From a virus (taxonomy: Duplodnaviria; Heunggongvirae; Uroviricota; Caudoviricetes): a stretch of 64,000 nt of DNA. Made by a program: the position numbers and the translations under genes. Under the pieces are notes generated by a model. It made no database searches, was not told the DNA's origin, and saw nothing but the letters and a program-made list of their open reading frames with translations. Shown piece by piece: positions 29,363 to 56,706 of the stretch (the first letter of the stretch is position 1; every line of letters starts with the position of its first letter). The DNA lies in IMG/VR virus record IMGVR_UViG_2877948078_000003. One strand, given 5' to 3'.

Positions 29363-29477
29363 AAAATAGCCAAAACACCAAAAATACCTTGATTTGGTAT
29401 TTTTAGTGATGCATTATTTACCCGTGCAGATATCCGCACGAATATCCGCGCGGGTAACTTTTTAGAATAGAGGAAGT
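29363..29477. promoter_or_regulatory. Early control region between c and ner (divergent promoters and operators)
   Basis: Inverted repeat AAAAATACC-N7-GGTATTTTT and direct repeat ATATCCGC x2 in a 115-bp divergent intergenic region. Confidence 0.5.
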
Positions 29478-38686: not shown

Positions 38687-38755
38687 CCCCAAATCCCGCC
38701 ACAACGCGGGATTTTTATTTTAAACTTACCGGGAACGCGAGAACCGGAGGCTGAT

Positions 38756-39181
38756 ATGGCAGAAACTCAGATGAGCATGTTTGGTGGTGACAGTGAGCAA
38801 CTGCACGCCCTTATCGACCGCCTTGATGACATCCCTGATGATGTTCTCAAAAAGAACTGGCCGCGGACCCTGTCAGAACTGGTTGAAGTCACCGGCGCAG
38901 AACTTCAGCGTCAGGGGATTGAGCCGGTACTGGCCGGTAAACTGGCACGCAAGGTGGCTGCGGCTCAGGCAGCCTATATGGGCGGACGGGGTTATTACCT
39001 GCCGGTCGGGGAATCTCTCTTTGCCGAGCTGCGAAACAATGAGATATTTTCGCGCTGGGACCGGGGCGAGAAGATTGAATCCCTTCGCCGCCATTACCGG
39101 ATGTCAGAAACCCAGATTTATACCGTCATACGTGAACAGCGCCGTCTGCATCTGGCAAGAACGCAACCGCCACTTTTCTGA
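38756..39181 (+). CDS. mor: Mor/C-family transcription activator
   Basis: 141 aa; position between gemA and lys; C-terminal HTH. Confidence 0.7.
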   Translation: MAETQMSMFGGDSEQLHALIDRLDDIPDDVLKKNWPRTLSELVEVTGAELQRQGIEPVLAGKLARKVAAAQAAYMGGRGYYLPVGESLFAELRNNEIFSRWDRGEKIESLRRHYRMSETQIYTVIREQRRLHLARTQPPLF

Positions 39182-39252
39182 TATTCCGCAAAGCCTGCCG
39201 CCTCTCCTTCACCGTTACGCTGACTCAGAGAACATCATGAGACAGCGTAACA

Positions 39253-40216: not shown

Positions 40217-40418
40217 ATGGCTGGCTGACTGCCTGGTCCCTCCTGCGCCGGAGCCGTTCACGTTTGGGGCATCGGTCACTTACAACCTGCAACTGCTGGC
40301 GGTGATCAAGAACTGCAACGTGGATAAGGCCAGTATTCGTCGTCTGGAGGCGCGGCGACAACATGAATTTACTGATATGGCCGGAACGCCTGCTGTTCCG
40401 GCAGGAAAGACGAAGTAA
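40047..40418 (+). CDS. Spanin outer-membrane lipoprotein
   Basis: Signal peptide with lipobox LTGC; out-of-frame overlap with the i-spanin. Confidence 0.6.
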   Translation: MKSNRTFSTARSSRALSAGRWQQCLRPLSLFLMMWLTGCAGPSVKYVPVKPVPIPAEWLADCLVPPAPEPFTFGASVTYNLQLLAVIKNCNVDKASIRRLEARRQHEFTDMAGTPAVPAGKTK

Positions 40419-40428
40419 GGAAAAAGGT

Positions 40429-40656
40429 ATGGATGATTCAGATCGTGCTCAGGCTGTGATGGAGCGGGGATCAGAACGCGCCCTTTGTAACCGGCTGACA
40501 CGTAAGCGCCAGGCAGTGGATACGCCGGGCAGACGTGTCTGCGCGGACTGTGGCGGAGAGATCCCCGCCGCACGTCTTGTTGCTGTGCCGGATGCCATCC
40601 GTTGTGTGAACTGCCAGAACATCATGGAGGCCCGTCATGTGGGTCAGCATCGTTAA
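40429..40656 (+). CDS. TraR/DksA-family C4 zinc-finger protein
   Basis: CADCGGEIP..CVNCQ motif; AAGGAAAAAGG SD. Confidence 0.65.
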   Translation: MDDSDRAQAVMERGSERALCNRLTRKRQAVDTPGRRVCADCGGEIPAARLVAVPDAIRCVNCQNIMEARHVGQHR

Positions 40657-46384: not shown

Positions 46385-46505
46385 CGGTCAGTGGCGGGGG
46401 TCGAACCCGCATACATGATCCACCCGGAGGCAGGCACCGACTTTACCAGTTAAGCGTACACTGACCGCCTGTTTATTTTATATTCATCCTTTATGCGGAG
46501 GCAAT

Positions 46506-46979
46506 ATGTCATCCATTGATGCCGCTGTCGTTGTTGACGTTACGCGTCTCCAGCGGGTCTTTGCCCGGCTTCAGTTTGTGGGTGGTGGAAAAGACCTGAC
46601 CCGCAGTGTGGCGTCCAGCCTTCTGTCATCGTCAGAAATGGCGTTTGAACAGGAAAAAGAGCCGGACGGCGAACGCTGGCATGACTGGTCAGATCCTTAC
46701 CGCAAGTGGCGTACCCGTAAGGGATACATGCCCGGCAAAATCCTGACGCTGAACGGCGATCTGGCCCGACGCCTGACCACGGATTATGGCGATACCTGGG
46801 CGCTGATTGGATCAAATGAGCCTTATGCGGCCATTCATCAGTGGGGGGGCCTGCCAGGTATGCCGCCTGGACCGGCGGCCATTGGTGCACGTCCGTATAT
46901 GGGCTTTGATCAGGTGGCAGAGCAGGAGATCATGGACGAAATCAGAAAACGCTTTAAAAAGGCCACAGAAACGCCTTAA
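46506..46979 (+). CDS. Virion morphogenesis protein (Mu G-like)
   Basis: 157 aa; position between F and the protease. Confidence 0.65.
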   Translation: MSSIDAAVVVDVTRLQRVFARLQFVGGGKDLTRSVASSLLSSSEMAFEQEKEPDGERWHDWSDPYRKWRTRKGYMPGKILTLNGDLARRLTTDYGDTWALIGSNEPYAAIHQWGGLPGMPPGPAAIGARPYMGFDQVAEQEIMDEIRKRFKKATETP

Positions 46980-47154
46980 TTGTTTAAGGTATGCAAATGC
47001 ATTACCTTACCCCCTTCAGGCGCGTGTCGTGATTTTCTAACCTGTATTTAACGGGCTTTAAAATCTGCGTGAAGCGCCTTTGCATTTTTTCCTGAAAGCA
47101 CTTCCTGAAATCCCGCAAAACCCGCCCTGAAAATTCCCGGCCTATGCTGCCGGA

Positions 47155-48279
47155 ATGAAGACGAAAAACACGCCCAAACTTGCTTATGCCATTCTGAATG
47201 CCATCAGCCTGTCCGCAGACGGGGACGGTGACTGGTGTCAGATCATGCCAGCCGGTCGGGTAAAGGCCCGTGACGGTCGCCCGGAAAAACCGGCCGAGGG
47301 CTGGCTGATCAACCATGCAGCCGTTGAGCGCATGGTCTCCCGTGTTGTGGCGCTCAATCAGCCGGTGAAAATTGACTACAACCACCAGACCCTGATTGAG
47401 GGACATCCGGCACCGGCTGCCGGTTTTGTGATGGCCTCACCGGAGAATTTTCGCTTCAGTGAAGAGCGAGGTTTCGAGGTGCGCCCGAAGTGGAACCCTC
47501 CGGCCCTTGAACATCTGCGTAATAACGAATTCCCCTGGTTTTCACCGGTGATTGGCTATGACGAGAGCACCGGCGAACCTGTCGAACTTCGGATGCTGGC
47601 TATTACCGGTGACCCCGGTCTGACCGGCATGAATCCTGTCGCCGCACTGTCGGCGGATGACCTTTATAACGCCTTAAACCCTCCTTTAAAGGATACCTCC
47701 ATGAATGAGCAATTACGCCAGTTGCTGACGGCGCTCGGTCTGACCGTGGCTGACGGTGACGAATTTACGCCGGAGCTGGGCACGGCAGCGCTGTCTGCCC
47801 TCACCGGGATCAAAACCCGTGCGGATGCACACGACAACCTGAAAACACAGGTCGCCAGTCTGTCGGCAGAGCTGGAAACTGCAAAAGGCACACCGGCTGG
47901 CGGCAGTATTGACCTGACGAAATACGTGCCCGTTGAAACGTATAACGCCCTGCGTACCGAATACGTTGCGCTGTCGGCGCAGCACGGCAGCACCACGCTG
48001 GAGCAGTTGCTGGACAAGGCCGAGTCCGAAGGACGCATCTTCAAAAGTGAACGCGGCTATCTGGAACAACTGGGCGGGCAGATTGGCGTGGCGGCACTTT
48101 CTGCACAGCTTGACGCCCGCCAGCCGGTTGCGGCCCTGACCGGCCTTCAGACCGACACCGTGACCGTGCCGGATAAAAAGACTGCCACCGCTGTGCTGTC
48201 GGCTGAAGATATCGCGGCCGCCAAACTGCTGGGTAAAACCGAAGCCGAGTTCCTGAAAATGAAAGAGGAAATGCAATAA
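47155..48279 (+). CDS. Head maturation protease / scaffold (Mu I-like)
   Basis: 374 aa immediately upstream of the major head gene. Confidence 0.7.
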   Translation: MKTKNTPKLAYAILNAISLSADGDGDWCQIMPAGRVKARDGRPEKPAEGWLINHAAVERMVSRVVALNQPVKIDYNHQTLIEGHPAPAAGFVMASPENFRFSEERGFEVRPKWNPPALEHLRNNEFPWFSPVIGYDESTGEPVELRMLAITGDPGLTGMNPVAALSADDLYNALNPPLKDTSMNEQLRQLLTALGLTVADGDEFTPELGTAALSALTGIKTRADAHDNLKTQVASLSAELETAKGTPAGGSIDLTKYVPVETYNALRTEYVALSAQHGSTTLEQLLDKAESEGRIFKSERGYLEQLGGQIGVAALSAQLDARQPVAALTGLQTDTVTVPDKKTATAVLSAEDIAAAKLLGKTEAEFLKMKEEMQ

Positions 48280-53306: not shown

Positions 53307-55361
53307 ATGGCAAAAAACCTGAAAGCCTCCCTGATTGTCGATTTACTCGGCAATGTTTCCGCCAAATCCCGCCAGTGGTCACAGGAGCTGGGAGCGTTCT
53401 CCCGCGTCGGCAGGACGGGGCTGGGTGGTATTGGAAATGCAGCCCGCCGTGCCGGTCAGGAGACAGAGCTTGTCGGCTCCCGTATGCAGCGTACGCTTGC
53501 CGGTGTCCGTGGCAGTATCCGCACGGTAACGTCGGATTTTGACCGTCTTCAGGGCAGTATTACCGGCACACTGGGACGTCTCAGCAACCTTTACGGGATG
53601 CTGGCAGGAGGGGCTGCGGTCTACGGTTTTAATAAAGCCTTTATCCGCCCGGCCGCAGAGATGGAGAACTATATTCTGCGTCTCAATGCCATTAATCATG
53701 GCGATACGGCAAAAACGGAAGCAGTGAAAGCCTGGGCGGTACAGAACGCAAAGGAAACCACCTGGGGGCTGGCGGGGGTTATGCAGGAATACGCCTCCAG
53801 TCGCGGGTTCGGTATGAGTGACAGGGAAGCCCGCCGCTTTATTACCATGCTTCAGGATCAGGGCGGCTATCACGGCTGGTCACTGTCAGATGCACAGGGT
53901 GCGTCCCTGCAACTCAAACAGATGTTTGCCCGCCAGAGTATCCAGGCCGCGGACGCCAGTATCCTGACCGGATACGGGATAAACGTTTACCAGTTGCTGG
54001 CCGATAAACTGGGTGTAAACCAGAAGACCATCCGTGAGAAAGGCGAGAAAGGAAAACTGGGACCGGACAGCATTCGGCTGTTATTTCAGGTGATGGCCGA
54101 ACAGGCAAAAGGTGCCCAGAAAAACGCCATGAACTCATGGACAGGGATGACATCCATGATGGGCGACGTCTGGGACGGATTTGCCCGTGAAGTAATGGCA
54201 AAAGGGCCATTTGACAGCCTGAAAAAGAGCCTGAAAGGCTTCCTGGATTATGCCGATGCGGCACAGAAAAGCGGCTTACAGGACAAGCTGGCCACACAAA
54301 CAGCCTCAGCCCTGAATCAGGGGTTTGAGTATGCCAGAGACGCAGCGACGGGTTTTTACCGGGCCATTCAGAAAGTCAGGGAAACGCTTCAGGCATTGCG
54401 TGACGCTGGTTATGGCGATGCGCTGAATCGCATTGGTCAGGGCGCACAGACCGCCGCGAAATATCTCCTGTATATGTATCTCGCCACCCGTGCGCTGAAG
54501 GCTGTCCGCGCCATAGGTCTTGGGGCACTGCGACCGGGGGCGGCATTGTTGGGGTACGGGTTATCCACGGCCGCTGTGCTGACCTCGCCTTTTCGTAAAC
54601 CGCAGACCACCGTTCCGGGCACGCAGCCAGGACGTGGCCAGCGTTTTATGAACTTTCTTACCGGGGTAAATCCTGCTGCCGTTCAGCCCGTACTGGTCAC
54701 CAACTGGCCTGCGGGTGGTCTGGCATCAGGTGGCGGGGATGTGGTGGTCAGCGGTGACGGCAAAACCGTGCGCGGTCGTAAAAAACGCGGCCCCGGACGT
54801 GGGCGGGGTGTTTCGACCGTTGTGACCGCAGGCGAACAACTGGCAGAGAGTGCCGGTAAACAGGGCTTCTTCGGTCGAATGATGAGCCGTGCCGGTGGTC
54901 TGCTTTCGGCTGCCGGAAACCGCATGGGACTGGGGCGTTTTGCCGGGCTTTTCCGTGGTGCTGGTCGGCTGGGTGGTGGTGCCCTGTGGGCCGGTGCCAT
55001 GGCGGCTCCTGTACTGCTGGACAGCAGTGCCAGTGCCGTTGATAAAGCCGGTGCCGTGGGTTCCCTTGCCGGAAGTATCGCCGGTGGTGCGCTGGGGGCT
55101 GCCGCCGGTCCGGTCGGGGTTGCCATTGGTTCCACGGTGGGCAGTTATCTCGGTGATTATCTGGGGGGATGGCTGACCGAAGCCTGGCAGAAATTACGGG
55201 GCAGTGATGAAAATGGCGGACAGGCCACCGCGAAAACCGCCGCACGGGTGGAGCTTGTGGCCCCTGAAGGCTGGCGGGCACGCAGTATTGATGTGGATGA
55301 TACCGTACAGCATGGCCTGGATGTGAACGTCTGGAACGGAGGGAACTATGGCCTCTACTGA
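53307..55361 (+). CDS. Tail tape measure protein
   Basis: 684 aa, Gly/Ala-rich, position. Confidence 0.8.
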   Translation: MAKNLKASLIVDLLGNVSAKSRQWSQELGAFSRVGRTGLGGIGNAARRAGQETELVGSRMQRTLAGVRGSIRTVTSDFDRLQGSITGTLGRLSNLYGMLAGGAAVYGFNKAFIRPAAEMENYILRLNAINHGDTAKTEAVKAWAVQNAKETTWGLAGVMQEYASSRGFGMSDREARRFITMLQDQGGYHGWSLSDAQGASLQLKQMFARQSIQAADASILTGYGINVYQLLADKLGVNQKTIREKGEKGKLGPDSIRLLFQVMAEQAKGAQKNAMNSWTGMTSMMGDVWDGFAREVMAKGPFDSLKKSLKGFLDYADAAQKSGLQDKLATQTASALNQGFEYARDAATGFYRAIQKVRETLQALRDAGYGDALNRIGQGAQTAAKYLLYMYLATRALKAVRAIGLGALRPGAALLGYGLSTAAVLTSPFRKPQTTVPGTQPGRGQRFMNFLTGVNPAAVQPVLVTNWPAGGLASGGGDVVVSGDGKTVRGRKKRGPGRGRGVSTVVTAGEQLAESAGKQGFFGRMMSRAGGLLSAAGNRMGLGRFAGLFRGAGRLGGGALWAGAMAAPVLLDSSASAVDKAGAVGSLAGSIAGGALGAAAGPVGVAIGSTVGSYLGDYLGGWLTEAWQKLRGSDENGGQATAKTAARVELVAPEGWRARSIDVDDTVQHGLDVNVWNGGNYGLY

Positions 55362-56706
55362 CACGCCGGGGCGTGGCTCCTTTCGTGGTGTACCGTTTCT
55401 GGTTTATCAGGAACAACGGGAACGGGGCGGACGTAACATTGTACGCCGTGAATATCCTCTGCGGGAAAGCGGCGGCGCGGATGATTTGGGGCCAAAACTC
55501 CCGGAGTTTACATTCACGGCTCTTGTGATCGGCGATGATCTTCAGACGCAGCGAAGCCGCCTGCGGGATGCGCTGCGGGCACCCGGTGCCGGTGAACTGA
55601 TGCACCCGGATTACGGCACCTTAAACGTGCTGATAAACAGCTTTGAAAGCCGTTATAACGCCAGCGAACAGGGAACGGTTGAGTTCACAATCAACGTGAT
55701 CCCCGCCTGTGATGATACCGCACCGGCGGTGGCTGAAGACACGGCTGCCGTTCTGGAGCAGAAAAGCGGTTCAGCAATGAATCAGTTGTTTAACACGCTT
55801 TCAGACGGCTGGACAGTGATTTCAGACGGCCTGCATGATGTGCAGGCCATGACCGACACCATCAGCGATAAAATTGATGCGCTGGAGAATGCCGTTTCGG
55901 GAATGGGGATTGTGCAGGATATCAGTGCCTTTACGGCCAGTTTCACTGCCCTGAAAGGGAATGCTGCCGCCCTGATTAATTCGCCCCGTCGCATGGCTGA
56001 ATCTCTGGCCGGAATGTTTGCGGTGCTGACGGGACTGCCCGGCGATCCTTCCCTGTCACTGACCGGGAAGGCCGCAACGCCGTCCGGCAGCCTGACCACA
56101 AACCGTGACAGCATGACAGAGCAGGCAATGCCGCAACTGTACCGCACACTTTCTTCCCTGCGTTATACCCTCAGCGGGCAGGATGATCCGCAGATCCTGA
56201 TTGGTCTGACGCCTGCGGCACAGAAAAATATCTGTCTTCTGCGGACAGTCATGCAGAGCGCAACCCTGGTGTCACAGGCGCAGACGGTAGGAAAACTGCT
56301 GGATCAGGTCGTCCGGCAGAGTGCGACGCACGTTCAGGATACTGACCGGGAGGGCGGACTGGCCTGGCTGGAAAGTTCTGCCGATGTGCAGCGGCTCAAC
56401 CGGGATTTGAGTGATGCCCTGGAACAACAGGTGCTGGATTTGTCCGCACAGGGCCATACCGGAACCGCCCTTGCATTACGTGATGCCAGGCTTGCGCTGA
56501 CAGAGGATTTAACAACGCGTAGCGTGCATCTTCCCGGCGCTTCTCAGGTCATGGTGCGAACCACCGAACCGGCACTGGTCACGCTGTACCGTGCCACCGG
56601 CAACAGCCGTCGCTGGCAGTATTTTGTCCGCAGGAACAACATCCCTGATCCGGTTTTTGTTCCTGGTGGTCGCAGTGTGGAGGTGATCAGTGAGCAGCAT
56701 GATTGA
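55348..56706 (+). CDS. DNA circularization protein (Mu N-like)
   Basis: 452 aa after the tape measure. Confidence 0.7.
   Translation: MASTDTPGRGSFRGVPFLVYQEQRERGGRNIVRREYPLRESGGADDLGPKLPEFTFTALVIGDDLQTQRSRLRDALRAPGAGELMHPDYGTLNVLINSFESRYNASEQGTVEFTINVIPACDDTAPAVAEDTAAVLEQKSGSAMNQLFNTLSDGWTVISDGLHDVQAMTDTISDKIDALENAVSGMGIVQDISAFTASFTALKGNAAALINSPRRMAESLAGMFAVLTGLPGDPSLSLTGKAATPSGSLTTNRDSMTEQAMPQLYRTLSSLRYTLSGQDDPQILIGLTPAAQKNICLLRTVMQSATLVSQAQTVGKLLDQVVRQSATHVQDTDREGGLAWLESSADVQRLNRDLSDALEQQVLDLSAQGHTGTALALRDARLALTEDLTTRSVHLPGASQVMVRTTEPALVTLYRATGNSRRWQYFVRRNNIPDPVFVPGGRSVEVISEQHD

Follow-up and report, generated by a model that had tools for sequence, protein, structure and literature searches.

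The DNA considered here is a stretch of 64,000 nucleotides, referred to below as the window, which contains an Sp18-type Mu-like prophage: between 46900 and 47300 its identity to Sp18 of E. coli O157:H7 Sakai is 98.3%, and of 5426 complete E. coli genomes 228 contain relatives of the element. The prophage genes include those for transposase A and B, GemA, a single Mor-family protein, a lysozyme, a MuF-like protein, the major head protein T and the tail genes. The limits of the prophage were taken from the Sp18 annotation; a search for its ends via inverted 11-mers found none. The region of interest is a 175-bp gap between a homologue of Mu gene G (46506-46979; Pfam Phage_tail_S, 1.7e-33) and a homologue of the head protease/scaffold gene I on the plus strand (47155-48279; Mu-like_Pro, 1.4e-76). 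The initial annotation had placed the feature discussed here between G and I, where Mu has a C-activated promoter, and this placement is borne out by the two Pfam assignments and by the gene order around the gap, which is the same as in Mu. Its position in Sp18, at 18.3 kb of a 38.8-kb prophage, is central. In the F-G intergenic region the minus strand of 46386-46465 is tRNA-like (31 bits against Rfam tRNA, gathering score 29) and its counterpart in related prophages carries the RefSeq label 'tRNA-OTHER'; ARAGORN found no tRNA in the whole window.

The activator gene proposed by the initial annotation, at 38756-39181 on the plus strand between gemA and the lysozyme gene, belongs to the Mor/C family as claimed (Pfam Mor, 2.8e-32), and its product is 39% identical to Mu C. 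It is the one Mor-family gene found in the element; Mu has Mor plus C. When the residues reported to contact DNA (10.1101/2025.05.02.651988) are compared in an alignment with Mu C, R72, Y75, P77, S110, Q113 and Y115 are kept and three are changed (R98E, Q116T and R120E), a pattern that fits a putatively different box bound in the same geometry. Between gemA and the activator gene, positions 38693-38721 form a hairpin resembling an intrinsic terminator (ATCCCGC-cacaac-GCGGGAT, with a T run behind it). An ORF for a DksA/TraR-type zinc-finger protein (40363-40656) is found in the late region, past the genes for lysis; its Sp18 homologue is annotated as RNA polymerase-binding transcription factor.

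Within the G-I gap, past the stop of the G homologue and before the ATG of the I homologue, the heptamer CCTGAAA occurs three times on the plus strand, at 47091-47097, 47104-47110 and 47126-47132, with start-to-start distances of 13 bp and then 22 bp. The three copies are hence present as the initial annotation had described them, in 47085-47135 upstream of the Mu-like protease gene. How unusual is such a cluster? In dinucleotide-shuffled windows 0.095 triples of any 7-mer within 45 bp are expected per window, and the real window holds five such loci, two of them in coding DNA. The CCTGAAA triple is above the shuffle expectation, and real sequence yields comparable triples without regulatory meaning. 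The heptamer itself is found 32 times in the window as compared to 8.7 expected, scattered over host and prophage DNA, an excess that fits the common CTG-AAA codon pair. A further pair 12 bp apart (starts at 54218 and 54230; 54218-54236) was considered as a promoter and rejected, as it encodes the repeat SLKKSLKG inside the tape-measure gene. Two other short repeats were noted along the way. On the early-gene side, AAAAATA occurs three times within 45 bp (29343-29386), at the start of a repressor-like ORF (28757-29362, minus strand) and just upstream of it, and may be promoter DNA rich in A/T or an operator. Positions 342-379, which belong to the host and not to the prophage, consist of about four copies of the tandem 10-bp unit CCACAAACAA.

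What is known of the corresponding promoters in Mu? Mu C binds a 16-bp imperfect dyad centred at -43.5, which overlaps the -35 region (PMC2582627) and has the consensus TTAT-N5-6-ATAA (PMC12867686), and the proteins of the Mor/C family are reported to use one bipartite, imperfectly dyad-symmetric site with its centre at -43.5 (PMC2582627, PMC12867686). According to a preprint, Mu C forms a tetramer that occupies about 26 bp immediately upstream of -35 (10.1101/2025.05.02.651988). Published work further describes the C promoters of Mu as having a -10 element and no -35 element. In Mu itself 24-25 nt separate ATAA from TAGACT in Plys, CAAACT in PI and TAAGAT in Pmom.

A comparable arrangement is predicted in the window. 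The best non-self match to 47099-47125, on both strands of the whole window, is directly upstream of the lysozyme gene. The upstream regions of I and lys share the sequence CACTTyCTGAwATyCCGCAAArCCyGCC and, 24 nt after GCAA in both, TAYGCT; their ungapped similarity of 20/30, reached by 3 of 300 shuffles, is modestly above that of shuffled sequence. The pattern C[CT]GCAAA-N21-25-TAnnnT matches the I and lys sites and nothing else in the window. At gene I the predicted activator box CTGA-N6-GCAA is at 47105-47118 and is followed after 24 nt by the predicted -10 hexamer TATGCT (47143-47148), both on the plus strand. Hexamer and start were placed by spacing; with an assumed start 7 nt past the hexamer, at 47155, the box spans -50 to -37 and is centred at -43.5. 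On this numbering the first CCTGAAA would lie upstream of the box, at about -64 to -58, the second at -51 to -45, with its CTGA predicted to serve as the promoter-distal half of the box, and the third at -29 to -23, within the variable spacer from the box to the -10 hexamer.

Box and hexamer recur at other genes of the element. When the pattern CTGA-N6-GCAA with TAnnnT 22-25 nt downstream, which had been fixed from the I and lys sites before the third site was found, is searched for in the 64-kb window, exactly three instances are obtained, all of them on the plus strand, intergenic and upstream of a gene. Besides the site at gene I these are the equivalent of Plys at 39178-39221 (CTGATATTCCGCAA, 24 nt, TACGCT), which overlaps the stop of the activator gene and precedes the lysozyme gene (39253), and a copy at 63021-63063 (CTGAATTAACGCAA, 23 nt, TATGAT). 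The latter is upstream of an ORF starting at 63096, a cargo gene with a SASA domain (sialate O-acetylesterase-like) between the invertase and the end of the window, and is also found in Sp18, upstream of ECs_4993; the late regulon may include this esterase-like gene. Without regard to the hexamer, the box is found 10 times on both strands of the window, so that its specificity would come from the combination with the -10 hexamer and the location. No convincing match was obtained for a box of the tail operon (P-type, PP-like) when the window was searched with up to 3 mismatches and with two-block regular expressions; minus-strand matches of this search at 55908, 60770 and 25480 are in coding DNA and were taken as chance. 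The com/mom upstream region of Sp18, which lies past the end of the window, contains no clear box. A scan of 46900-47250 for consensus sigma-70 promoters and terminators yielded no complete one, as is expected for an activator-dependent promoter, and this result by itself is uninformative. The hexamer 17 nt upstream of TATGCT reads AACCCG, which is not a usable -35.

The predicted promoter resembles the late promoters of Mu (Plys, PI, PP and Pmom) in several respects. It is found at the position of PI in an element in which a Mor/C gene comes just before lys, it has a -10 element without a -35, 24 nt lie between its bipartite 4-N6-4 box, centred at about -43.5, and the -10 hexamer, and the box recurs at several late operons. 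It differs from them in the box itself, as CTGA-N6-GCAA has little dyad symmetry and Mu uses TTAT-N5-6-ATAA: CTGA and TTGC, the reverse complement of GCAA, match in 2 of 4 positions, whereas TTAT/ATAA of Mu is perfect. A weak outer dyad, CTTT-N13-AAAG, is present at the lys site only. A similar arrangement with yet other boxes is seen in more distant relatives. Contigs of an Aeromonas-type clade each carry two exact copies of the box GTAACCCACCATAAACCC at a distance of about 8 kb: one is upstream of an endolysin gene and precedes TACGCT by 24 nt, the other is upstream of gene I and precedes GACACT by 24 nt. On one of these contigs the box is also found in front of a third gene. E. coli relatives whose proteases are 62-71% identical have TTAATGTAGCGTAA, 24 nt and CACACT, and Pseudoalteromonas phages have TTCCCGAAACACCGCAC, 24 nt and CATACT, the latter box resembling TTCCTGAAATCCCGCAA of the window. 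Promoters of the Aeromonas/Tolumonas type and of the Pseudoalteromonas type thus share with the window the 24 nt from the right half of the box to the -10 hexamer and an inverted repeat by the start of gene I, but their boxes are clade-specific and they have no CCTGAAA triple. From these alignments, the predicted spacing from box to -10 is a trait of the family and the sequence of the box is specific to the clade.

The predicted -10 hexamer is close to the gene: with 6 nt between hexamer and ATG, transcription is predicted to start at the A of the ATG or next to it and to yield a leaderless mRNA. In Mu the -10 element, also placed by spacing, would leave about 30 nt of leader. The distances of 24 nt from box to -10 hexamer and of 6 nt from hexamer to ATG are found again in Aeromonas, Tolumonas and L035-type E. 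coli phages. The hexamer is in the loop of an inverted repeat (CCGGC-ctatgct-GCCGG, 47137-47153, plus strand) that ends 1 nt before the ATG of gene I. Among 33 distinct loci, 76% have a perfect stem of 5 bp or more whose end is no further than 8 nt from the ATG of gene I, as compared to 15% of random positions, and the stem sequences differ between clades, several of which have the predicted -10 in the loop, 6 nt from the ATG. RNA folding of 47120-47180 indicates that the hairpin is not unusually stable (z = -0.83), so that its support comes from recurrence across clades. A search of the literature on late promoters or leaderless transcripts in Mu-like prophages found nothing specific.

Which parts of the gap are conserved? 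The sample comprised 25 IMG/VR relatives, three divergent E. coli genomes and Sp18, and the variability of alignment columns was computed over 18 distinct family sequences. The -10 hexamer does not vary at all (0 of 6 columns) and the box varies in 1 of 14 columns, as compared to 8 of 24 in the spacer between them, 8 of 84 in the block right after G (47001-47083), 63 of 155 at the 5' end of gene I and 2 of 7 in each of the heptamers. At the lys-side promoter of the relatives, box and TACGCT are likewise invariant and the spacer is variable. GAAAAT, which overlaps the third heptamer, was considered as an alternative -10 hexamer and rejected, as its T is lost in relatives (GAAAAA), whereas TATGCT is invariant. 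This distribution suggests that selection acts on the box, which includes part of the middle heptamer only, on the -10-like hexamer and on the upstream block, and not on the heptamer as such.

Taken together, the gap probably contains a PI-type late promoter of the Sp18-like prophage, which would be served by the Mor/C protein encoded at 38756-39181 through one bipartite box. The promoter would drive the operon for head protease and scaffold, with gene I as the first gene behind it, and the interval 47085-47135 would be its upstream half. The single Mor/C-family protein would bind CTGA-N6-GCAA, centred at about -43.5, and recruit the sigma-70 RNA polymerase to a promoter that has the -10 hexamer TATGCT and no usable -35, and Mu C is reported to act likewise at Plys, PI, PP and Pmom. 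Of the heptamers, the middle one alone would matter as a sequence because it holds the distal half-site CTGA. The first and the third copy are probably not recognition units; they would be lineage-specific look-alikes that arose in an A-tract-rich stretch from a heptamer common in the genome. An upstream contact of the activator near the first copy may nevertheless exist, given the invariant CCTG of this copy and the tetramer reported for Mu C.

The gap has a second probable function. In Mu the centre of the prophage is occupied by the strong gyrase site (SGS), the cut site of which is annotated 20 bp past the G stop. According to a review, no foreign site other than the SGS of the Sakai Mu-like prophage supported Mu replication in place of the SGS of Mu, and the right arm of the SGS is essential and carries repeat motifs that induce long-range bending (PMC10052514). 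In the window the conserved non-coding block directly after G (46980-47083) is a candidate for the SGS core and the proximal right arm. A palindrome, AAGGTATGCAAATGCATTACCTT (46986-47008), begins 7 bp past the G stop and has its centre about 20 bp past it, and GTATTTAACGG, equally far from the G stop in both, is shared by the window and Mu. By alignment with Mu the centre of the SGS is therefore predicted near 47000, inside the palindrome, and relative to this point the heptamers lie at about +91 to +132 and the right half of the activator box at +115 (Mu +111). Like the SGS of Mu, the predicted site has a central G-I location, a centre about 20 bp past the G stop, a conserved block with TTTAAAC-like motifs and a late promoter nested in the right arm (PMC10052514, PMC3820752). 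The motifs in question, three A/T-rich sequences within 47032-47064, resemble the TTTAAAC repeats of other Mu-like phages. Two or three such motifs (TTTTAAACGCG, TTTGAACGCG, TTTAATAG), presumably part of the SGS, are kept at a spacing of about 11-21 bp just past gene G in Mu-like phages of several genera, namely in the window, in Mu (L001, 8890-8935) and at the loci L002, L003, L006, L007, L010, L035, L039 and L045. As judged from these alignments, the DNA of the G-I gap is probably the right arm of an SGS as well.

It is conceivable that the heptamers belong to this second function, their GAAA and A-tracts acting within the SGS right arm as phased signals for bending that aid wrapping of DNA around gyrase. 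Such a role is compatible with the promoter. The layout of the gap matches that of Mu, with GTATTTAACGG fixing the centre, and the review cited above describes the right arm as essential and as carrying bending repeats. In addition, A/T dinucleotides in 47020-47154 have a periodicity of about 12 bp (power 2.95) that was reached in 0 of 1000 shuffles and ranks in the top 0.4% of 135-nt windows; it is kept in relatives without exact CCTGAAA and is absent at the lys promoter. The A-tract is also the sole invariant part of the third copy, the CCTG of which varies (CCCGAAA, CCCAAAA). On the other hand, about 12 bp is not the helical repeat of 10.5 bp; the periodicity of Mu, which does peak at 10.5-10.75 bp, is of weak significance, and more distant Mu-like phages have no significant A/T periodicity. 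Moreover, the A-tract of the first copy is lost in many relatives (CCTGTCA), and the cleavage position is derived from alignment alone. As an account of the heptamers this is possible but on balance doubtful; the first and third copies may contribute A-tracts to the pattern of about 12 bp that fits the right arm. A more far-reaching proposal, which we regard as unlikely, combines both functions: the promoter would be built into the distal right arm of the SGS, the A-tracts at about 12 bp, including the GAAA of the heptamers, would be used twice, and the mRNA of gene I would be leaderless. If this were true, wrapping by gyrase and binding of activator and polymerase would compete or cooperate on about 60 bp, supercoiling in the replication phase would be tied to the onset of head-gene expression, and transcripts reading through from the lys operon would have the conserved hairpin folded over the start of gene I instead.

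The proposal of the initial annotation was that the heptamers could be binding sites for the Mor/C-family protein, and in its full form each CCTGAAA would be a separate site and the three would act together. The location at the position of Mu PI, the rarity of the triple in shuffled sequence and the overlap of the middle copy with the conserved box agree with this proposal, as do the invariant CCTG of the first copy across the family (18 distinct sequences) and a C tetramer covering about 26 bp (10.1101/2025.05.02.651988). The number of copies does not: among the 25 IMG/VR loci, whose activators are near-identical or 84% identical, 5 have three exact copies, 8 have two, 2 have one and 10 have none, and Sp18 has two because its first copy reads CCTGGAA. 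The conservation of the triple that was looked for in related phages is thus not found. The varying positions are moreover unlike in each copy, being 5 and 6 in the first, 1 and 7 in the second, which is TCTGAAG in some relatives, and 3 and 4 in the third, and this speaks against recognition of the same heptamer by a single protein in all three places. When the other late promoters were searched, the place homologous to the middle copy was found to read TCTGATA at lys and ACTGAAT at the esterase gene, as compared to CCTGAAA at gene I, and no CCTGAAA-like sequence is present in either at the positions of the first and third copies. The third copy lies between -35 and -10, in the territory of polymerase rather than of the activator, the distances of 13 and 22 bp set the first and second copies on different faces of the helix, and the family's known sites have a bipartite, dyad-like form (PMC2582627, PMC12867686). 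Three cooperating sites are for these reasons very unlikely. What stands of the original proposal is a late promoter in which the middle copy overlaps the predicted box; a function of the first and third copies as activator sites is unsupported. Binding of some other protein, such as a host response regulator that uses direct repeats or a nucleoid protein, is hardly credible, as nothing beyond the direct-repeat arrangement speaks for it, the repeat unit is not conserved, its spacing is irregular, and inspection by eye of the variant sequences of relatives revealed no match to the spacing of Pho boxes.

The feature is best described as an ordinary PI-type late promoter, predicted to be Mor/C-dependent, with a clade-specific box and nested in the probable right arm of an SGS. 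Its significance extends little beyond annotation. Given that this DNA probably also serves as SGS right arm, short direct repeats in this region should be read as protein sites with caution. Sp18-type prophages are common in Shiga-toxin-producing E. coli, and CTGA-N6-GCAA followed after 23-24 nt by TAnnnT would provide a usable signature of their late promoters. For promoters of the Mor/C type more generally, the comparison suggests that the geometry is kept while the box drifts between clades.
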